This document shows positions 563 through 11,543 of a stretch of DNA of 11,543 nucleotides, piece by piece (position 1 is the first letter of the stretch; every line of letters begins with the position of its first letter). The stretch is taken from NCBI GenBank assembly GCA_040326155.1, contig JBEQLE010000102.1, positions 1-11,543 of the forward strand, given 5' to 3'. This stretch comes from Leptospirales bacterium (GTDB taxonomy: Bacteria; Spirochaetota; Leptospiria; Turneriellales; JAOUFE01). A model generated the notes under the pieces. It did no database searches. It had not been told where the DNA came from and was given only the letters and a program-made list of their open reading frames with translations. The position numbers were made by a program, and so were the translations under genes.

Positions 563-678
563 AGATAACAACTACCGGCTTTACATGTTCAAGACGATAA
601 ACCTCCTCTGCTATAAAATTCATTTGTCTAATTGATTTTGAGAAACTTCTTCTGCGTTCCTACCGTGACAGGGCAATA

Positions 679-1212
679 TCAGTTATCGTTTGTACTAATC
701 TTCAACCAGCTATTTTGGTAACCTAGGGAATCTAGTATTTTCTTTTTATCCAAAGTTTCAATGGGACGGTCGATTTCCAAATATAGCGACTTAGGCGGAA
801 CTATTTCAATTATTGTGAATTGTGAACCATGAGGTTGCCACGTGAATTTATGAAGGTTCGAAGACGAATTAAATCCAATCAAATTATTATTTTTATTCCA
901 TTCCCATCTGTAGTTTTCAGTAGGATAAGGTACTGTACTGGTTTCAAAGACAACAACATTTTTTAAATCATCAGATTTAATTAGCACCACTGTTCGAAGC
1001 TCTTTGTAGTTTATTAGGATATTATTTACTCGTTCATTCCAAATTGAGAGAACCATCGCGCCTATTTTATTTGGGTCTGCATCTGATATTTTGTTTTGAC
1101 CAAAAGAGTACGTAGGCGAATTACGTCCTGAAATTAGTCTTACGGATTTTTGTGATTTGGGATTGTTAAATGTTGCTTTCTTTTTTATTGATTCTGGACA
1201 ATAAACTTGCAA
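679..1212 (-). pseudogene. C-terminal fragment of a putative type II restriction endonuclease
   Basis: Motifs VRLISGRNSP.YS, IWNERV, LRTVVLIKS, WEWNKNNNL and HKFTWQPHGSQFTI match, from memory, endonuclease-like partners of C5 methyltransferases. Similarity appears to begin only at about 1166, and the TTG start lies inside the neighbouring ORF. Confidence 0.6.
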
Positions 1213-1369
1213 CTGTTATGTCTTTCCGGTTTATATAATCGTTGCGGGCAGTATGTATAATCGTCATCACTTTGGTTATACTATGATTTGAACCCTTTTG
1301 ATCTAACATGCAAATAGCATTTAAAATGCGCTCAAACAAAATATTTATATCAGTATTATTTTTATCCAT
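1166..1369 (-). CDS. Small hypothetical protein (67 aa), possibly truncated
   Basis: ATG lies 2 nt after the DUF3883 stop, so probably co-transcribed. No recognisable motif. Confidence 0.45.
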   Translation of the reverse strand: MDKNNTDINILFERILNAICMLDQKGSNHSITKVMTIIHTARNDYINRKDITVASLLSRINKKESNI

Positions 1370-1371
1370 TT

Positions 1372-2145
1372 TTATTCGCTCCCTATATTAGCATTCCAGT
1401 TTATTTGAATATTTGTTACTTCACTAGATGAAAAATTTAATTTGCTGTTCAATGGGTTTTTATAAACAGTATGATATGGGTATTCCTTAAAGTTGTGCAC
1501 AATGTATAAAAAAAAACGATTTTTTAGTAAGCGGGCAACTTGATATTCTTTTGCAGTCAATTGGATATTCCCGGCTTTGTTTGCGAGTCCTTTCACTTCG
1601 ACAGCAATAAATGGCTTACGTAATATATCGATTTTAAAATCAAATCCGCACCCCCATTTGGTTGTATTTGTAAGTGTACAATTTTGAAAATAAGTTTCTT
1701 TTTGATAATTTCGTTCAAAGTAATGCTCCGCAGCTTGACCAGTGATTAATCGTTTTGCAAAAGTATTCTGACTATAGTTTGCAAGTTGATCTTCAATACT
1801 TTCAAGTTCGCCAAGTTCGGAAATAGATAATCTAAGAATTTCTACAAAATCTTTTTTGTTAAGTTTACAATAAATATCAAATATGTTTTGACAATTACTA
1901 CGCATAGACCTTTTATGCCAGCCACTGCGTGCATTTGGGAAGTATGGATCAAACTCATCTCTGTAATTCTTTATAGAAGCAGGCTGAGCATTTAAACTAA
2001 AGGCGATTGTATTAAATGCTTCAGAAAAACTATTAAAACCCAAAGCTTCTAATCCATCGCGATCAAATTTAGCTAAGAATAAACCGGTTAGAATTAGTTT
2101 TTCTCTATTAGTCAGTTTTTGGTTTCTATTAATATATTGGCTCAT
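1372..2145 (-). CDS. DUF3883 (NO VEIN C-terminal-like) PD-(D/E)XK nuclease domain protein
   Basis: C-terminal motifs G..AE.YF, GCGFDF, AVEVKG and IQLTAKEY. Conserved-looking N-domain SIKNYRDEFDP.FPN.R.GWHKR. ATG 2145 is preferred over TTG 2181, which lies inside the MTase remnant. Confidence 0.8.
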   Translation of the reverse strand: MSQYINRNQKLTNREKLILTGLFLAKFDRDGLEALGFNSFSEAFNTIAFSLNAQPASIKNYRDEFDPYFPNARSGWHKRSMRSNCQNIFDIYCKLNKKDFVEILRLSISELGELESIEDQLANYSQNTFAKRLITGQAAEHYFERNYQKETYFQNCTLTNTTKWGCGFDFKIDILRKPFIAVEVKGLANKAGNIQLTAKEYQVARLLKNRFFLYIVHNFKEYPYHTVYKNPLNSKLNFSSSEVTNIQINWNANIGSE

Positions 2146-2158
2146 ATTTCTGAATAGA

Positions 2159-2503
2159 TTATAAATGTTTTTTAGCTTCAATGCTCCGAGCTATATCAAA
2201 AAATAAGGTACCCCGAGTATCAATGAATCCATTACGTTTACCAATTATGCTAAAAGGTTGGCATGGAAATCCAGCAAACAATATATCATGATCGGGAATG
2301 AAATTTTCGTTTACTTTCGTAATATCCCCAAAAGGCTCTTCACCGAAGTTATCCCCGTAGATTTTTTGAACTGCGGGGTCAATATCACTAGAAAATACGT
2401 TTTTCGCTTCAAATCGATATTTCTTAGATACATTGTTCATCGCAACCCTAAAGGCACCGATACCACAAAAAAGATCAATATAGGAAATGTTCATATGTGA
2501 CAT
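2159..2503 (-). pseudogene. Truncated DNA (cytosine-5)-methyltransferase, motifs I-V only
   Basis: IDLFCGIG (motif I), SDID (II), GDI (III), catalytic AGFPCQPFS (IV), RGTLFFDI (V). Stops at 114 aa, before the ENV motif VI and the target-recognition domain. Confidence 0.92.
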
Positions 2504-2651
2504 AACAGATATTAATTATGGGACTGAAAATCAACCAAATAATTTTTACAAAGTAGGATCCCTGAATATATCATAGATTTTTTCCGACAACAAACTTTAT
2601 CCACTCGAAACCGCTCAACCCCCACATTGTCGAAAATGAGGCAGCAGTACT

Positions 2652-2897
2652 CTAAAAATAAATACCCAGAAATAGCTCGATTGCTACCGTAGTGCGTACC
2701 GATGGAGTGGTTACCTTTACGCCTCGTTTTTTCACCTCAGCTTCGCCAACCATATTAGTATATTGTAGATTACACTTGTATAATGATGGCTCACCTGAGA
2801 ATTGCCTCTATTCTAAATCTGCCAGATCGACGCGCACGATGACGCCCCAACCGGTACCTGAAAAAGAGCCGAATCCTGACTCTTTTGCTATGGCCAT
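2652..2897 (-). pseudogene. Possible decayed C-terminal fragment of a beta-barrel outer-membrane protein
   Basis: One frame with a single internal TAG (2808-2810): MAIAKESGFGSFSGTGWGVIVRVDLADLE*RQFSG...TTVAIELFLGIYF*. Alternating hydrophobic strands and a terminal Phe. Confidence 0.3.
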
Positions 2898-2929
2898 AAA
2901 ATAATCTCGTTTTAACCTCTCGTGTGTGC

Positions 2930-2945
2930 CCGACATCCTTGTCGG
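2930..2945. repeat. REP-like GC-rich hairpin
   Basis: CCGACA-TCCT-TGTCGG is a perfect 6-bp stem. A related hairpin lies at 7992-8005. Confidence 0.4.
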
Positions 2946-3204
2946 CCATGTATGAAACTAAAATGTGATTATGCTATTAAATAGATTTGACACATGGACT
3001 TTTTGTATAGAACTTGAGATGCACTCCAAAAAGTATATAATTTTATGCTAAGAGCGAACGTACGATTGTTGCCTGTCCAACTTTACATCAATTTGATGCT
3101 TTTTAGAGATATCAAGAAGTATTTTGAATCATTTAGCTTAAAAAATTATTCTTGTTGGACATTGCAGGTATTTTTTTGAAAATAAATATATTTTGAGAGA
3201 AAAT

Positions 3205-3513
3205 ATGAATAAAATATTTTTAGATAAAATTAGCTTATTAAAACAAAAATACAATACTGAGGGGTTTATCATTCTTGGTGTTTTTGGATCATATGCCAGA
3301 GGAGAGGAAACTCCAACCAGTGATATTGATATTCTTTATGAACTGGCTGAGAAATTTTATAATAAATATCCTGGATGGGGAATTATTTCTGCCATTGAAA
3401 ATATTCGAAAAGATCTTGAAACAACATTGGGAAAAAAAATTGATTTTGCAGATAAAAACGCTTTAAAAAATACCGGGAAAAAATATATTTTACCAGAGGT
3501 TCAGTATGTCTGA
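3205..3513 (+). CDS. Minimal nucleotidyltransferase (MNT) antitoxin of an MNT-HEPN pair
   Basis: Pol-beta-fold motifs GVFGSYARGE...SDIDIL and LGKKIDF, about 102 aa, overlapping the next gene. Alternative start TTG 3193. Confidence 0.92.
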   Translation: MNKIFLDKISLLKQKYNTEGFIILGVFGSYARGEETPTSDIDILYELAEKFYNKYPGWGIISAIENIRKDLETTLGKKIDFADKNALKNTGKKYILPEVQYV

Positions 3514-3724
3514 AAAAAGTGACCTTGCAAAACTCGATTCAATTTTAAATTATATTCAGGATATTGATACAATTATTAAACGCCACGAAACTATTGAAAA
3601 TGCACTGGATGACATTGAAGGTCAATACATTCTAAGGATGATGGCTCATCTCGGTGCGTTATCTGCAACTGTTGCTCGGTGTTTGCGCTCAGGGAATGTA
3701 TTTATATACGCGCGCCCGGTTTGA
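3506..3724 (+). pseudogene. Truncated HEPN (DUF86/HepT-like) toxin
   Basis: Start overlaps the MNT stop. The helical N-terminus (D..KL..IL.YI.DI) is HEPN-like up to EGQY (about 3628). The rest is a non-homologous GC-richer tail running into the convergent gene, and the C-terminal R-X4-6-H RNase helix is absent. Confidence 0.65.
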
Positions 3725-6526
3725 GGTATCTTTGAAGCCAATGTAAATGTTCCCGCTCGGATCTACTGCCAATGAGTGAGCGTTGTTTAAGTTCCCGTTG
3801 CCAGGATTGCCCAGATAGTCCCATGATGTTCCGCTATTCCAACGATACACGGAAAAACCGTTTGTGTTATCAATAATCACAACCGGGTTTGCTCCGTCGA
3901 CTGCGATGTCGAGACCGTAAATCTGTGTGGTTGGACCATAGGGGTAACCCATCAATGTCCATGTGGTTCCGTCATAGGAGTAGACTTTTACGTAATACGA
4001 AGAGCTGCTCGAAGAGTTTTTGTAGGCGAATGCAAAATAGATGGTGTTGCCAACGGCGACCATACTGTGCCAGCTTGTGTTCACTCCGTCAGGATAGGTT
4101 TTTAGTAGAGACGTAGTTGTGGACGCGGCGAGCGAGCGGTATATTTTATAATCGGTACCGCCATGCATAACCGATATGTATCGATTGCCATTTGTCGTTA
4201 CGGCAACGACAGGGTAATTAAAGTTTGTTCCAACCATGGTTCCCCCGCTGTCGCGATTTGACCAACTCGCGCCATTCCACTCTTTTAAGTGGATGTCATC
4301 GCTAAACTCAAAAGCGACCACAGGGTAGTTCGAGTAGAAAGGATTTAGCGCAATGGACGTATAATAATGAGTTCCGTTCGTTGTTGCTTTGCCACGGCTA
4401 ATCCAGCTTGCTCCATTCCATTCAAGTATATTGACTCTATTGAAATCGTCAGCATTGCCTACGGCAACAACAGGTGTATTCGCGTCTTTTGCGGTGATGC
4501 TCATGCGTGCGCCGGAGGCCCCCCCGAGAAGATTCCCCCCGACAGCTGTCCATGAACCCCCGGTTTCGCTGTATTTGTCGACGTAAACAAGGGTGCTTCC
4601 ACCGTCATTATAGACGCAGTATACGTTGTCTTTATCGACGGCGACAATGGCGGGGTAATTTGTAATACTCGCGCTGAGAAAACCAAGGTCGGTCCAGTGG
4701 GTAATGGTAAAATTATTGGCGCTTTGTGTGGTGAAAGCTGTTCCACCCAGGGATGTAATGACAACTTTATAGTTGGTTCCTTCAGCCTGCGCTCCGGGAA
4801 TTGGCCAGGAGAAAGAGCCATCGTTGGCGGTCGTTGCGGAAATAGTGCTGTTAAAAACCCCACCTTTGTATAATTCAATTTTTACATTGGCGCCCACCCC
4901 CAGATCATAATTCCAGGTGATTGTCTGGGAGGAGCCTACCTGGTATTTAATACCGGCAGTGTTCGGAGATATAATGTTCAGTTTCCCAATGGAAAACGCC
5001 AGATCACTGTCGTCCGTAAGGTCAACCCCGGCGCCATCAAATACGTCGGTAATTCTAATTTTATAGTTTGTGATATCGGTGGCCTGGGTCCCCGGAATGG
5101 TCCAGTTGTAAGTTCCATCGTTGGGTGTGCTGGCAATAATTGTGGAGTCAAATACATTCGACTTTAACAGCTCGATTTTAACATTTCCGCTGAAATCGGC
5201 GCCGCTTCCGGACGTCCATGTAATGGGTACGCTGTCTCCGGTTTCATAGATCAGGCCGGTGTTCGGGGCGGTTACCACAAGGGTATTTACCAGGGCAAAG
5301 TTCGCGTCGCTATCATCCGTAATCGAGTTTTCCTCTATAAAGGTCAAACGAATGGTATAGTCCAAACCGGTTTTACCCCCCGGGACAGTCCAGTTGTACG
5401 ATCCATCATTTGGGGTAGAAGCGATTATTGCGCTGTCAAAAATATTATTTTTCAGTAAATCGATTTGTACGGTTCCCGAATTGGTTGCCGACCAGGTAAT
5501 GTTAAAGTTTTCGCCGGTTCCGTAAGTTTCTGATCCATTGGGTGTTGAAACGAGCAAGGAGTCTACGATGGCAAAGTTTGCATTGCTGTTGTCGGTAATG
5601 GCAGCGTTTGATAAATGGGTGATGACAACTGTATAATCTTGTCCCCCCGCCTGCCCGGGGTTTATGTTCCAGGTATAACTGCCGTCGTTGGCGGTACTGG
5701 TTGTAATATTTGAATCGAACACTCCGCCTTTGAATAATTCAATTTTAACGTTCCCTCCGGCTACGGCCGTCCAGGTGACACTTGTCGCTCCCCCTGAACC
5801 AAGGACCTCGCCCCCGTCCGGCGCAGTCACCAGGATAGATTCGATAATGGAATAATCGGCGTCGCTGTCATCGAGTACCGCTCCGCTTTCAATCGAAGTT
5901 ATTTTAATGCGCGATTGAGAAGTATCCACTCCCGCAGGTATAACCCAGTTAAAAGCATTGTCATTTGCCGTTGAGGAAGAGATCGTTTGGTCAAAAATAC
6001 CACCAACCAGAAGTTCAATTTTTACCGTACCGCCGATATCCGAAGCCCAGGCAATGGGGATAGTGTCACCTACGGTGTAAAGTTCACCCCCGTTGGGTAC
6101 GGTAACAACAATCGTATTACTTATAACAGTAAAGTCTGCGTTGCTCTGGTCGGAAGTGGATGGGGTCTCAATAGATGTAATTTTAATACGATAATCGACT
6201 CCGGGAGTCAGTCCGGGCGGTACGGTCCAGGCATAGAGGCCGTCATTGGGAGTGTTTGCCGTTATTGTAGAATCTAATACCCCGCCTTTGTATAAATCAA
6301 TGCTCACATTTCCATCGATATCCTGGCTCCAGGTGATGTTCGTCAGAGTTGAGGGAATAATGGACTCCCCCCCGTCAGGTACGTCAACAACAATGCCGAT
6401 GCTAGATCCACCGTCACTGCTACTGTCGTCTCCTAAAAACTCTACGTCGAGACTTGGGGTATTGGCACAGTTCATCCCGAATAAAATAAAAATAAATATG
6501 ATTGTGAGTTGGACTTTATTTTTCAT
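3689..6526 (-). CDS. Large surface lipoprotein: six tandem Ser/Thr-rich Ig-like repeats (PF10342-like) plus a C-terminal beta-propeller-like domain
   Basis: Signal peptide ending in LFGMN-C20. Six repeats of about 92-100 aa with pattern V..PNGGE....G....ITW...G.VKIEL.K......I...T.NDG.Y.W..P.....Y.I.IT...D.SD..F.I (about 4700-6400). C-terminal region has repeated WNGASW/YDGTTW blades. Confidence 0.88.
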   Translation of the reverse strand: MKNKVQLTIIFIFILFGMNCANTPSLDVEFLGDDSSSDGGSSIGIVVDVPDGGESIIPSTLTNITWSQDIDGNVSIDLYKGGVLDSTITANTPNDGLYAWTVPPGLTPGVDYRIKITSIETPSTSDQSNADFTVISNTIVVTVPNGGELYTVGDTIPIAWASDIGGTVKIELLVGGIFDQTISSSTANDNAFNWVIPAGVDTSQSRIKITSIESGAVLDDSDADYSIIESILVTAPDGGEVLGSGGATSVTWTAVAGGNVKIELFKGGVFDSNITTSTANDGSYTWNINPGQAGGQDYTVVITHLSNAAITDNSNANFAIVDSLLVSTPNGSETYGTGENFNITWSATNSGTVQIDLLKNNIFDSAIIASTPNDGSYNWTVPGGKTGLDYTIRLTFIEENSITDDSDANFALVNTLVVTAPNTGLIYETGDSVPITWTSGSGADFSGNVKIELLKSNVFDSTIIASTPNDGTYNWTIPGTQATDITNYKIRITDVFDGAGVDLTDDSDLAFSIGKLNIISPNTAGIKYQVGSSQTITWNYDLGVGANVKIELYKGGVFNSTISATTANDGSFSWPIPGAQAEGTNYKVVITSLGGTAFTTQSANNFTITHWTDLGFLSASITNYPAIVAVDKDNVYCVYNDGGSTLVYVDKYSETGGSWTAVGGNLLGGASGARMSITAKDANTPVVAVGNADDFNRVNILEWNGASWISRGKATTNGTHYYTSIALNPFYSNYPVVAFEFSDDIHLKEWNGASWSNRDSGGTMVGTNFNYPVVAVTTNGNRYISVMHGGTDYKIYRSLAASTTTSLLKTYPDGVNTSWHSMVAVGNTIYFAFAYKNSSSSSSYYVKVYSYDGTTWTLMGYPYGPTTQIYGLDIAVDGANPVVIIDNTNGFSVYRWNSGTSWDYLGNPGNGNLNNAHSLAVDPSGNIYIGFKDTSNRARVYKYIP

Positions 6527-8032: not shown

Positions 8033-8389
8033 TTAATCTTCGATAATTTCAAATGCTTTGTCTATAAGATCAATTATTTGATTTTCTTTGCTATTCGATA
8101 ACTTTGATAATTTGCCGATTAATTCCATATGCTCTGGTTTTATCGCTTTATTAATATTATCAGTCACCATTATCATTTGCCCGTTTCCTGTAAATAACCA
8201 GTCTATTGATAATGAAAAAGTTTTAACATACTTTAATAAGAATTCGCTAGAAGGGAAAATACCGTTTTCAACTCGTGAGATATAAGAACGACCAATACCA
8301 GTTTTCTCCGCAATATCTTTCTGTGCATAATTCAATGCTTTTCGAAATTCAACTAATCGGTTACCTAAACCCCCCAAATCAATGCACAT
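8033..8389 (-). CDS. XRE-family helix-turn-helix transcriptional regulator (CI-like, no peptidase domain)
   Basis: HTH_3 pattern RL.EFRK.L..AQKDIAEKTGIGRSYISRVENG..PS ... SIDWLFTG.G.M. Confidence 0.93.
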   Translation of the reverse strand: MCIDLGGLGNRLVEFRKALNYAQKDIAEKTGIGRSYISRVENGIFPSSEFLLKYVKTFSLSIDWLFTGNGQMIMVTDNINKAIKPEHMELIGKLSKLSNSKENQIIDLIDKAFEIIED

Positions 8390-8451
8390 AGGTTAATGAT
8401 AGTCACATTTGATACAATTGAAAGCATTATTTTATAAAATTACAGGCCATA

Positions 8452-8508
8452 GTTTAATAATAGTAAACTTTTTGTTGACAGGCTGCCGTATGTTTAATAT
8501 TATTAAAT
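8452..8508 (+). promoter_or_regulatory. Rightward sigma70 promoter overlapped by palindromic operators
   Basis: TTGACA (8475-8480), 17 nt, TATTAT (8498-8503). Operators GTTTAATAATAGTAAAC (8452-8468) and GTTTAATATTATTAAAT (8492-8508). RBS GGAG at 8530-8533. Confidence 0.75.
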
Positions 8509-8541
8509 TATCAAATCGAAAATGTTACTGGAGAGCACAAA

Positions 8542-8778
8542 ATGGCGTATCCCCCTGAATTTAGTATGAAAGCAAGTTCAACTTTGAGAAGAATTGCCTG
8601 GGCAGTCGGTAAGCGTATGACAAAAACTGCAGAAGATATTATGGATTTTCTACCGCAAGTGATTGATAAGAAACTTGTTTGTCAGAAATGCAGGGATAAA
8701 ACGAAATGTAAGGATTGTGTTTTCTTTGGCCGAGTTAGTATGAAGAATGCGAAGTTGATTAAGACGATTATTAAGTAG
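8542..8778 (+). CDS. Small basic protein with a putative ribbon-helix-helix-like N-terminus and a CxxC-x5-CxxC zinc-binding motif
   Basis: Good promoter and RBS. Motifs LRRIAWAVGK.MT and CQKCRDKTKCKDC. Mostly synonymous differences from the second copy support coding status. Confidence 0.8.
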   Translation: MAYPPEFSMKASSTLRRIAWAVGKRMTKTAEDIMDFLPQVIDKKLVCQKCRDKTKCKDCVFFGRVSMKNAKLIKTIIK

Positions 8779-8866
8779 TTTGGTTGGGGGGTTGGGGAGG
8801 CGCGTGTTTAGGTGCGCCTTCGGAGATTATATTTTGTATGGCGTGGAGGAGTCAGCTAGGGATGAG
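8556..8866 (+). repeat. About 300-bp direct repeat, copy 1 (Cys4 gene body and 3' region)
   Basis: Aligns by eye at roughly 90% identity with 9559-9864. Both copies end at CTAGGGATGAG. Confidence 0.95.
8796..8821 (+). terminator. GC-rich stem-loop after the Cys4 gene (possible terminator, no strong U tract)
   Basis: GGAGGCGCGT-GTTTAG-GTGCGCCTTC. Identical copy at 9796-9821. Confidence 0.45.
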
Positions 8867-9060
8867 ATGTCTCTTTAAAATAAATAATTGATCGAATGTC
8901 TCTTTAAATGTAAGTATCATTTGCTGTATAATATGATGTGAGACTCAAAGGTGCGCGTATTCGCGTCTGAGAGAATTAGAATCTGTTGAGTCTCTAGAAC
9001 AAGTTCATGCATGACTATTCTCGTACATAAAATGTCATATGGCAAAATACAAAAATCATT

Positions 9061-9465
9061 ATGAAAAAGAAAACCTATGAAATAGTGATGCATGCAAAGA
9101 TATATATATCAATTCTACTATTTTTAATATCCTCATTATTGCTGATTATCTCGGAAATGAGAGCTTTTCCAATATTTGCATTATTCATGTCAATTTTGAC
9201 GCTTGTTGGTGGCTCCAATTATGATTACAGTAAAGGATCAAATGCTACTACTGAGGTCAAACAAACAAATAAACGTTGGATAAATTTATCAATGAATATA
9301 GCAACACAACTATTAATTATTATTTTTATATATGGTTTGTTATTTCTTTTTGCTGCTCAGGAAACAACTACCGGAATAATCATTATAATAGTTTCGATAA
9401 TTCTACTGCTAGCAGTTCGAATGATTAAGAAAGATAATCTAAAAAAGTCTGTAAAAAAGTTATGA
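9061..9465 (+). CDS. Four-TM membrane protein, probably the N-terminal part of a frameshifted TM-TIR gene
   Basis: Four long hydrophobic segments. Its stop overlaps the start of a TIR-like sequence in the +1 frame. Confidence 0.7.
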   Translation: MKKKTYEIVMHAKIYISILLFLISSLLLIISEMRAFPIFALFMSILTLVGGSNYDYSKGSNATTEVKQTNKRWINLSMNIATQLLIIIFIYGLLFLFAAQETTTGIIIIIVSIILLLAVRMIKKDNLKKSVKKL

Positions 9466-9574
9466 TTTTATTATATCGCATGCATATGAAGATAAAGATG
9501 ATTTTGTAAGACCTTTAGTACAAGAATTACAAAATCTAGGCTTAAATGTATGGTATGATGAATTTACTTTAAAA
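9455..9574 (+). pseudogene. N-terminal fragment of a bacterial TIR domain
   Basis: Own translation from 9461: YDFIISHAYEDKDDFVRPLVQELQNLGLNVWYDEFTLK. Matches the bacterial TIR consensus YDVFISHASEDK..FVRPLA..L...G..VWYDEFTLK (AbTir/TcpC-type). No start codon of its own, and cut before the catalytic Glu. Confidence 0.9.
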
Positions 9575-9864
9575 GCGAGTTCAACTTTGAGAAGAATTGC
9601 CTGGGCAGTTGGTAAGCCTATGACAAAAACAGCAGAAGATATTATGGACTTTCTACCGCAAGTTATTGATAAGGAAATGGTTTGTCAGAAATGCCGTGAT
9701 AAAACGAAATGTAAGGATTGTGGTTTTTTGGCCGAGTTAGTATGAAGAATGCGAAGTTGATTAAGACGATTATTAAGTAGTTTGGTGGGGGTTGGGGAGG
9801 CGCGTGTTTAGGTGCGCCTTCGGAGATTAACTTTGTATGACGTGAGGGGTCGGCTAGGGATGAG
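9559..9864 (+). repeat. About 300-bp direct repeat, copy 2: 5'-truncated, frameshifted Cys4 gene copy
   Basis: In frame with the TIR fragment: KASSTLRRIAWAVGKPMT...CQKCRDKTKCKDCGFLAELV* (stop 9743-9745). 1-nt deletion near 9722-9728 relative to copy 1. Confidence 0.93.
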
Positions 9865-9879
9865 CGTTAATCGATGCGA

Positions 9880-10158
9880 CTAATTAGAAATGATATTCTT
9901 TATTAAAAATACAAAACCACCAATAAAAATAAATGTAATAAAAATAGCTACGAAATGAAGCAGAATTGACATTTCACCTTGAAGTGGTTGTTGCATAATT
10001 AGTGCTAGAATTACAGCTACAGGATGTGCCAACCATGAGAGAATTTCTGACCAAATCTCCCGGGCCTTCGGAGGGAGAAAGAAGGACACAGTGAATTCTA
10101 CGACCGCTAAAATAAAACCGATAGTACTGCCTAAAAATATAGCCCGACAATTTTTCAT
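9880..10158 (-). CDS. Small membrane protein (2-3 TM), candidate immunity protein
   Basis: Hydrophobic 92-aa ORF starting 2 nt after the stop of the DUF4157 gene. Confidence 0.65.
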   Translation of the reverse strand: MKNCRAIFLGSTIGFILAVVEFTVSFFLPPKAREIWSEILSWLAHPVAVILALIMQQPLQGEMSILLHFVAIFITFIFIGGFVFLIKNIISN

Positions 10159-10160
10159 AT

Positions 10161-11543
10161 CTATATACGGTGTATTTGCAAAGAACCCTTGTCTGTTTTA
10201 GAATTGCCGACTCCCCAGTTACCGGTTAATTTTCTCTCCCCACTTGAAAGAAAGTAACCTTTTCCAGACTGGTCCCCTAGAGACCAATTGAATTGAATAT
10301 GAATACCAGATATTGGCGATCGATTTGTCTCTGAATTAAAAAGATTTTTCCCACGCACGGTTGTTTGTTTGTAGTTTATAATACCATTCAAAATATTTCC
10401 GGTGACTTTCTTCCCCCCTTTTTTAAGAGACAAAGTACCGTTTGCCAAGCCGTCAATATTAGCGTTTAGAGTAATCGATAACTTTTCTTTATTTGACGAT
10501 GTACCGGCCCAATTTCCGCTTAATAAATTGGCCCAAACCTGCCTCCCGACACCCTCTTCATAAAAGTTTGGATTACTCTCTTCATTCCATTGTGAGGAGA
10601 TATATTTTGCCATTGAAAAAGTCATTGCAGGATTACTTATGAGGTCTTTATAAAACTTTCCCCCCTGTCTATTGGCTTCCAAGTCCGCATTTGAAAAAAC
10701 TCCAGTCGTAAGCAAGCCAAATCCACCACCTTCGGAACGTTCACTACTTTCCTCAGCCGCATTACTTCCCTCTTTCAATGCCTTAGTAAAATACGATGCT
10801 CCCTGCTGGAAAAAATGACCGAGTTTGTCGCTACCAATACAAACTCCTTTTACCTTCATAGTAGGGTTAAGGATGGGAAATGTGGATTGCATCCATATTA
10901 CATAATTCACACCAGCATATTTTGTTTTACCTTTTTCAGGTAGTGATAACTTAGTTGGTGATAAAGTGTTTGCCCAGACCTCTATAGCAGTACGACCTGT
11001 TTTTACATCTGCACCTAATTTGCCAAATATCCCTTTTGCAACCGTTAGTCCTTTAGGTGGTTTCCCTGAAACTTTTCTCGATGCATCCAATGACATGTTG
11101 ACTTTAGTGTCGATGTCACTCAACGTGTCTTTAAGTTTCGAACAGCCCAACACCGTGTCAACTTCGGCTTTTTGAAGCAATTTTTTATTACCTTGCTGCA
11201 CAGTATGTGTCAACTCATGAGCCATTAACCTTTTACCCTGAACACTATTGGGGGAGTACTCTCCAGCCCCAAAATATATATTATTACCGGTAGTAAATGC
11301 ACGAGCATTTACCGAACGTGAAAGTTGAGCGGCATTTGAATCTGTATGCAAACGTACATTGGCAAAGCTTGTACCGAAACGTGGATCAAAATAAGAACGT
11401 TCACTCGGTGAAAGGGCTTTTCCGCCACCATTGGTCGAATTAATCGCAGATTCAATCCCATACGGGGCAGGTGTAGACAATCCCTTTCGTTGGACAGAGG
11501 AATTGAGCGGTATCCTAACAGAGCCATGTCCTGTTGCAGTGTT
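10161..11543 (-). CDS. DUF4157 (eCIS core domain) protein with a toxin-like C-terminal region; 5' end lies outside the window
   Basis: DUF4157 signature GG..L....R.YF.PRFG..F..VRLHTD....A..VNARAFT.G..IYF..GEY.P....G.RLMAHELTHTVQQ. The frame stays open from 11480 to the window edge (NTATGHGSVRIPLNSSVQRKG). Confidence 0.9.
   Translation of the reverse strand, partial: NTATGHGSVRIPLNSSVQRKGLSTPAPYGIESAINSTNGGGKALSPSERSYFDPRFGTSFANVRLHTDSNAAQLSRSVNARAFTTGNNIYFGAGEYSPNSVQGKRLMAHELTHTVQQGNKKLLQKAEVDTVLGCSKLKDTLSDIDTKVNMSLDASRKVSGKPPKGLTVAKGIFGKLGADVKTGRTAIEVWANTLSPTKLSLPEKGKTKYAGVNYVIWMQSTFPILNPTMKVKGVCIGSDKLGHFFQQGASYFTKALKEGSNAAEESSERSEGGGFGLLTTGVFSNADLEANRQGGKFYKDLISNPAMTFSMAKYISSQWNEESNPNFYEEGVGRQVWANLLSGNWAGTSSNKEKLSITLNANIDGLANGTLSLKKGGKKVTGNILNGIINYKQTTVRGKNLFNSETNRSPISGIHIQFNWSLGDQSGKGYFLSSGERKLTGNWGVGNSKTDKGSLQIHRI

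Follow-up and report, generated by a model that had tools for sequence, protein, structure and literature searches.

A dead TIR defence gene fused with a Cys4 paralogue: a modular, rearranging genomic island of a Leptospirales bacterium

In this study, we analysed a stretch of 11,543 nucleotides (nt) from a Leptospirales bacterium (assembly GCA_040326155.1, contig JBEQLE010000102.1), which we call the window and which is the entire contig C3 of a genome bin of 4.26 Mb (171 contigs, 94.7% complete); labels such as C14, C77 and C90 denote other contigs of the same genome. The window holds a TIR defence gene that is dead, within an island that is built of modules and prone to recombination. An open reading frame (ORF) with four hydrophobic, putatively transmembrane (TM) segments is followed, in another frame, by the beginning of a TIR domain, which passes without a stop into the second local copy of a small multicopy gene that we call Cys4. 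An earlier note, made from the letters of the sequence alone, had drawn attention to this arrangement. The features of the locus are the following (HTH, helix-turn-helix; aa, amino acids).

8033..8389, minus strand: XRE-type HTH regulator gene, divergent from Cys4 copy 1 and with it forming a multicopy HTH/Cys4 module (Pfam HTH_3, E 1.7e-13)
8449..8511, no strand: 20-nt inverted repeat (90% complementary) and promoter-like site in the divergent intergenic region
8542..8778, plus strand: Cys4 gene copy 1, full length, 78 aa, with the pattern CxxC-x5-CxxC
8556..8866, plus strand: repeat arm R1, from Cys4 codon 5 onward with 88 nt of 3' flank including a GC-rich hairpin
8869..9020, plus strand: leader copy, shortened at its 5' end (nhmmer 102.9 bits)
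9061..9465, plus strand: orphan 4-TM ORF (the TM ORF), 134 aa, four hydrophobic segments
9453..9458, plus strand: A6 run, where the 1-nt frame break that separates the TIR stub from the TM ORF most probably lies
9455..9574, plus strand: TIR remnant of about 40 codons (first strand, first helix, second strand), without a start codon of its own
9559..9578, plus strand: junction tract, with 8 nt identical to copy 1, 5 nt with TIR-type T-L codons, then AAAGC
9575..9780, plus strand: Cys4 copy 2, without codons 1-9 and with a 1-nt deletion at the T6 run 9724-9729
9781..9864, plus strand: 3' flank of repeat arm R2, with a GC-rich hairpin as in R1

The stretch 9455-9574 is the genuine start of a TIR domain and comprises its first strand-helix-strand only. 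From position 9455, frame 2 reads KS-YDFIISHAYEDKDDFVRPLVQELQNLGLNVWYDEFTLK and stays open through Cys4-like sequence up to the TGA at 9743-9745, and thus both the TIR start directly behind the 4-TM ORF in a shifted frame and the uninterrupted run from EFTLK into a Cys4 paralogue, as the earlier note had described them, were recovered. The PADLOC models PDC-S66 (PDLC05062; E 5.8e-18, profile positions 149-193 of 282) and ThsB1 (PDLC00417; E 2.1e-15, positions 167-212 of 303) match the stub. The search with Pfam TIR_2 (PF13676) that the note had proposed returned a match at E 1.1e-5 (profile positions 1-40 of 122), although its score of 26.3 bits, or 24.6 bits in a six-frame search of the genome, misses the curated cut-off of 28 bits because the stub is short; full-length relatives score 73-81 bits. 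Twelve full-length TIR proteins align to residues 1-42 of the stub at 62-82% identity and share with it the motifs SHA(S/Y)EDKDDFVRP and WYDEFTL, and the ten relatives that were scanned match PDC-S66 at E 2.5e-52 to 3.9e-94 and ThsB1 at E 6.8e-30 to 4.4e-87. A literature search on PDC-S66 returned nothing useful.

In an alignment with ten relatives, the stub tracks the family through WYDEFTL and then diverges. Homology ends at EFTLK, and the profile alignments extend by at most 5-8 further residues through a chance match to LRR. Compared with a complete fold of about 120-135 residues, approximately 95 are missing. The column of a nearly invariant Glu that follows W-x-x-x-E-L in the ten relatives has no counterpart in the window. 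In TIR NADase and signalling enzymes, this conserved Glu is catalytic. Judged by its sequence, the TIR remnant cannot work as a TIR. A tblastn search with four full-length relatives found no displaced remainder in the assembled genome (94.7% complete); apart from the stub itself, its only hits were a complete but unrelated TIR (C33, E 3.7e-5) and a stretch of C12 (E 0.022), the latter matched by the non-TIR N-terminal part of the protein P0016. The genome holds three further, complete TIR genes.

The right-hand end of the stub coincides with a direct repeat. The segments 8556-8866 and 9559-9864 are approximately 92% identical at a spacing of 1003 nt and have an exact common start, TGAATTTA. 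Compared with the full Cys4 copies, the joint is in register: eight of eight positions match (TGAATTTA), followed by two of five, and the match is full from AAAGC onward. The 5-nt patch behind the 8-mer encodes T-L, as does the TIR family motif WYDEFTL, and since these TIR codons survive beyond the 8-mer, the crossover must lie 3' of 9572. One relative, P0018, has K-A after the motif; had the ancestor had K-A too, the tract match would have been 15/18 and therefore a good substrate for short-homology recombination. Of the microhomology junction claimed in the earlier note, the in-register tract common to copy 1 stands, but the crossover falls outside TGAATTTA. Together, these observations support the truncation of a TIR gene after codon ~38-40 and its fusion with a Cys4 paralogue. 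Over the common coding part, copy 2 is 94.3% identical to copy 1, and its C-terminus is frame-shifted by the 1-nt deletion in the T6 run. We also considered that the Cys4 N-terminus itself might derive from a TIR domain; this was rejected, as the distant paralogues on C140 and C21 do not conserve EF and LRR.

It is very improbable that this picture is an artefact, with sequencing errors in homopolymers behind the frame breaks and/or a chimeric contig formed inside the Cys4 repeat. Both frame breaks do lie in 6-nt homopolymers, the contigs C5, C64 and C90 end in Cys4 copies, and exact repeats within 9611-9786 (53 and 60 nt) could in principle have mislinked the sequence to the right. However, 9540-9571 is not spanned by any exact repeat of at least 20 nt, which excludes a k-mer chimera at the TIR-Cys4 join, since a graph assembler would have needed spanning reads to make it; with the homopolymers corrected, the TIR would still be about 95 residues short; and the repeat arms differ by approximately 8% and hence are not collapsed copies.

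Cys4 belongs to a family that is abundant in this genome and scarce outside it. With copy 1 as query, 19 places in the genome match at the DNA level and 21 at the protein level. Five copies are full length, of which four adjoin a full-length divergent XRE-type HTH gene, while the partner of the fifth (C90) is an HTH gene cut to 43 residues; HTH paralogues stand beside full Cys4 copies on C77, C29 and C140. The HTH genes are mutually 34-47% identical (65% for the C90 fragment) and the Cys4 proteins 83-94%. Among 33 other genomes of the order, one has Cys4 (two copies at about 50% identity), and in a set of 5.8 billion proteins the relatives are 12 unnamed proteins without a Pfam family. Copy 1 has no Pfam or PADLOC match, and its structure model (mean predicted local distance difference test score, pLDDT, 56.8) was too poor to use. 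Three contigs end inside Cys4 copies (C5:10876-10980, C64:1056-1183 and C90:45580-45661). Because the assembly breaks at the Cys4 repeat, several short contigs (C3, C14, C21, C29, C32 and C41) may be parts of one larger island.

Six 5'-truncated Cys4 copies, the window's included, have their start within 3 nt of one common position at codon 9/10.

Starts of the truncated copies: C14:7128, C14:4621, C14:3940, C90:44779, C77:4618 and window 9575

At least three unrelated sequences stand upstream of this point, namely the TIR stub, the region where an HTH gene starts (C77) and, on the reverse strand, codon ~58 of an HTH gene (C14 and C90), two of the truncated copies on C14 being derivatives of the codon ~58 context. 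A seventh truncated copy begins approximately 12 nt earlier. Truncated copies are 92-94% identical to the full copy of their own group, compared with 72-87% between groups. The proposal that microhomology-mediated recombination inactivated the gene holds in that the TIR is truncated and dead, but a one-off accident is an incomplete account when six copies break alike. The recurrence could reflect a site-specific process at Cys4 codon 9/10 (a recombinase, nicking or fork-stalling site), which concerns the mechanism only and is compatible with the other explanations discussed here. The starts within 3 nt behind at least three unrelated upstream sequences favour it, as does the close identity between each truncated copy and the full one found on that contig or on a sister contig. 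We nevertheless regard such a process as unlikely, because the position of the window's joint is explained by its own long in-register match, neither a strong hairpin nor a recombinase gene was seen beside the site, and none of the eight genome matches to the integron integrase model TIGR02249 scores above its cut-off of 265 bits (best 102.7). Moreover, a single truncated ancestor that had spread, with upstream rearrangement and local gene conversion, would mimic the pattern.

Upstream of the TM ORF lies a copy of a dispersed leader of about 160 nt, for which an alignment was built from 18 copies. It has 58 nhmmer matches in the genome, about 20 of them near full length, including C161:2231-2401, C140:13476-13641, C14:7373-7537 and C21:218-390. 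The leader contains an imperfect inverted repeat, and in the window copy a promoter-like TTTAAA-18-TATAAT stands at 8903-8932. No match to the leader was found in Rfam, and the RNA fold of 8925-9060 was unremarkable (z-score -1.5). At its 5' edge, a 13-nt direct repeat (ATGTCTCTTTAAA) occurs at 8867-8879 and 8895-8907, 28 nt apart from start to start; the second ATGTCTCTTTAAA copy is a conserved leader motif and the first stands where the usual 5' part of the leader would be. An ORF of at least 100 aa begins within 300 nt behind 13 of the 20 best leader copies. Of eleven cargo genes of this kind that were scanned elsewhere in the genome, four match PADLOC: IetA (followed by IetS), PRTase_III-A, an OLD/AriA/GajA-like gene and, weakly, PDC-M14B/AbiTi. 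The remaining seven are without a PADLOC match; one matches Pfam PIN_12 and six match nothing. The TM ORF starts 201 nt past the aligned start of the leader, and most cargo genes start at +130 to +255. In an order-wide search, the leader was present in three of 34 genomes, with 24 matches in the genome of the window, to which it is almost confined; one clear copy was found in another family of the order. Leader copies alternate with HTH/Cys4 modules on C14 and C140, and the spacing of leaders on C14, C140 and C161 is 1.7-2.6 kb. On C21, a complete IetA/IetS pair (667-3980; PADLOC E 5e-99 and 9e-230) stands directly behind a leader copy, and a stop-interrupted Cys4-like gene (4122-4352) belongs to the same locus.

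Sedentary chromosomal integrons are cassette arrays with conserved attC repeats. The leader resembles such arrays in being a conserved repeat of about 120-160 nt, with an imperfect inverted repeat, found upstream of diverse single genes, several of them defence genes. Unlike them, it lies 5' of its cargo, carries a promoter-like site and occurs on many contigs, with an unclear R'/R'' core, and the genome of the window has no integrase above the cut-off. We rejected the leader as an integron attC, because no match in the genome (94.7% complete) reaches the integrase cut-off.

The TM ORF is a real gene, because a contig from a sediment metagenome that is 97% identical over 9023-9258 keeps its frame open with conservative exchanges only. 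This contig of 236 nt (one contig, low depth) has eight differences, which lead to five conservative I/V/L/F/M exchanges and no stop in the ORF. In the present sequence, the TM helices and the TIR do not lie in one open frame, and one base must be skipped to join them. Because of the frame 2 TAA at 9452-9454 and the frame 1 TGA at 9463-9465, the switch of frame is confined to 9455-9462; when 9451-9454 are read as one four-letter step (X), the TM part runs on into the TIR without a stop. This agrees with the earlier observation that removing one base at 9453-9461 joins the two frames, and the A6 run at 9453-9458 is its likeliest site. The TIR frame has no ATG, GTG or TTG between the TAA (9452) and the first strand residue, and TIR homology starts at the exact domain start, one codon ahead of the stop of the TM ORF.

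The organisation of related loci is consistent with a single gene. Among 80 related TIR loci, which are the best 80 of 573 confirmed matches to one query so that rare forms may escape, 65 encode a domain of at least 60 aa (mostly 116-178 aa) N-terminal to the TIR. The TM ORF would supply 133 aa in this position and, with 134 aa in all, fits the usual plan of PDC-S66/ThsB1-type proteins, in which an N-terminal domain of about 116-178 aa precedes the TIR. Furthermore, the guanine plus cytosine (GC) content is 0.284 in the TM part and 0.242 in the TIR stub, compared with 0.396 for the genome and 0.38 for Cys4, and it shifts at the joint. Thus, we infer that the TM ORF and the TIR were once a single gene, which is the most economical reading and has about an even chance of being right, although it cannot be confirmed.

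On this basis, we propose that the locus is a decayed anti-phage cassette, driven by the leader, that once encoded a membrane-anchored TIR protein and was killed by two lesions; we consider this explanation evenly balanced between right and wrong. The leader at 8869-9020 would have driven a gene with the 4-TM ORF as the N-terminal domain and a PDC-S66/ThsB-type TIR of approximately 135 aa at the C-terminus. In a first lesion, a deletion would have brought TIR codon ~38-40 next to codon 9/10 of another HTH/Cys4 module that lay downstream. The remainder of the TIR, with the catalytic Glu, would have been lost in it, as would the 5' end and promoter of this second module. The joint would have formed where DEFTLK of the TIR and PEFSMK of the Cys4 N-terminus read alike. 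In a second lesion, a gain of 1 nt in the A6 run would have parted the TM portion from the TIR stub. Both the order of these events and the mechanism of recombination are what we infer from the arrangement.

Several results weigh against this explanation, and mostly against the single 4TM-TIR protein that the earlier note had taken as the ancestor. Searches with the TM ORF and the TIR stub separately found no intact 4TM-TIR homologue. For the TM ORF, no homologue was found among 1.84 billion representative proteins, none of 200 pattern stretches in metagenome contigs was confirmed, and none of three other genomes of the family has it. None of the 80 related TIR loci has two or more TM helices N-terminal to the TIR (two have one helix) and none has a same-strand upstream ORF with at least two TM helices within 200 nt; likewise, a 4-TM N-terminal domain occurs in none of 12 proteins of the subfamily. 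Members of DUF6768, to which the TM ORF has a near-threshold match (26.6 bits, cut-off 27), are stand-alone proteins of similar size, and the TM ORF may likewise be a complete gene by itself. Contigs from public runs (three runs of one study) contained nothing informative over 9259-9864, where the joint and both homopolymers lie, the pieces of 31-40 nt being unrelated. Finally, given the common break point of the Cys4 copies, the right-hand end of the deletion would not be due to chance microhomology alone. As for the other matches of the TM ORF, the only one among the representatives, P0015, is a repeat protein that aligns to a loop and was rejected as a homologue; the ESM Atlas gave unnamed clusters at 0.90 and no usable family; and a literature search on DUF6768 returned nothing useful.

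Membrane attachment of a TIR is not unusual in itself, contrary to what the note had assumed. Two of the 12 subfamily proteins are membrane-linked, P0020 by three C-terminal TM helices and P0017 by one N-terminal helix. Moreover, PMC11350192 describes TIR defence systems of E. coli that are experimentally active, one of them also with a TM domain; these systems have no sequence link to the orphan TM ORF.

Another possibility, which we consider rather improbable, is a two-gene arrangement resembling Thoeris, in which the 4-TM ORF is a complete, separate membrane effector and a ThsB-type TIR gene downstream of it lost its start and its 3' part. According to a preprint (bioRxiv 10.64898/2025.12.03.692087), Thoeris types II, V and VII place a ThsB-like TIR beside a small multi-TM protein, with effectors of three helices in type V and SLATT effectors in type VII, and the window, with its ThsB-like stub next to a small multi-TM ORF, is similar in this respect. 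ThsB1 is among the best models for the stub, the TM ORF matches DUF6768 weakly (26.6 bits) and an RT-associated SLATT model at E 0.18, and it is open and apparently conserved in a second strain. On the other hand, a TIR start codon would need at least two substitutions, compared with one indel for the fusion. The upstream multi-TM ORF is absent from all 80 related loci, and four of them have a downstream one within 200 nt on the same strand. Unlike the Thoeris systems with membrane effectors, the window has no SIR2, Macro, SLOG, DUF2270 or SLATT at threshold, and its genes overlap in such a way that no start codon is left for the TIR. Apart from its helices, the TM ORF contains nothing of a sensor domain; neither DUF2270 nor any SLATT family of Pfam matches it with an E limit of 1, and it matches no effector family at threshold in Pfam, PADLOC or the ESM Atlas.

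It is similarly doubtful that the TIR piece is a stray fragment of 120 nt with junctions on both sides, next to an unrelated intact membrane-protein gene. The locus is prone to rearrangement, with about 20 Cys4 copies, many of them truncated and some with contigs ending in them; a TM-TIR linkage is without precedent in the 80 loci; and the window contains more gene fragments (the N-terminus of a C5-methylase and a 72-aa ORF at 3506-3724). However, the left edge of such a fragment would have had to meet the TIR domain start, by chance, within one codon of the TM stop, and the TM part and the TIR stub are alike in their unusually low GC content. The decayed cassette remains our preferred reading. 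It is distinct from the PDC-S66/ThsB1-type proteins in keeping a stub only, without the catalytic Glu and the last ~95 residues, and in its putative 4-TM N-terminal domain.

A broader proposal, which we put forward as tentative and more probably wrong than right, is that much of the defence arsenal of this genome is made of units consisting of the ~160-nt leader and one cargo gene (among them IetAS, the PRTase, the OLD-like ATPase, the PIN protein and the TM/TIR gene), that these are interleaved with a lineage-specific HTH/Cys4 regulator pair of about 20 copies, that Cys4 codon 9/10 is a fixed break site for the deletion or swapping of cargo, and that the TIR relic would be the product of a new, integrase-free system of cassette exchange or co-regulation.

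With regard to regulatory signals, a promoter-like TTGACA-17-TATTAT at 8475-8503 agrees with 11 of 12 consensus positions, and the number of promoter-like sites in the scanned region did not exceed that in shuffled sequence. A terminator scan of the region found none, and an Rfam search of 8380-9950 gave nothing but a chance snoRNA match (E 0.6). To the right of the relic lie two further genes.

9880..10158, minus strand: small membrane ORF, 92 aa, downstream of the DUF4157 gene and convergent with Cys4 copy 2
10161..11543, minus strand: gene for a DUF4157 (eCIS_core) protein (Pfam E 2e-28), open at the contig end

The small membrane ORF has no Pfam family and is a single copy in the genome. 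The genome contains 12 DUF4157 genes, five of which lie within 3 kb of a Cys4 copy; besides the one in the window (10161-11543), they include C14:2-3321, C90:37972-40650 and C142:13902-15776. The C-terminal parts of those near Cys4 vary, with annexin, a polysaccharide deacetylase together with LysM, or no assigned domain. No link is known between Cys4 and extracellular contractile injection systems (eCIS), to which DUF4157 (eCIS_core) effector genes belong (PMC8213781). The window ends in a DUF4157 gene, which is a neighbour of the TIR relic and not part of it.

Two other places in the window also hold fragments. At 1372-2503 on the minus strand, a C5 cytosine methylase is reduced to its first ~110 residues (profile positions 2-102 of 324) and overlaps an ORF of 269 aa whose C-terminal domain is NOV_C / TmtA-like; it looks like another broken defence gene. 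At 3193-3724 on the plus strand, an MNT-like nucleotidyltransferase gene is followed by the 72-aa ORF at 3506-3724, which overlaps the end of an opposite-strand gene for a 945-aa surface protein and has only a weak Pfam match to DUF5100. Given the usual pairing of MNT with HEPN, this ORF may be a truncated HEPN partner.

The relic itself carries little weight, since it is a dead TIR gene whose 4TM-TIR ancestor cannot be verified. It is a clean example of how a defence gene may be lost, through a short-homology deletion against a multicopy repeat and homopolymer slippage. Its surroundings are of greater use. Six leader-linked cargo genes without a PADLOC match, five of them also without a Pfam match, are candidate new defence genes. 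A common leader ahead of many unrelated defence genes, together with an expanded regulator pair that repeatedly breaks at one site, could show how an uncultured lineage regulates or shuffles its immune genes.

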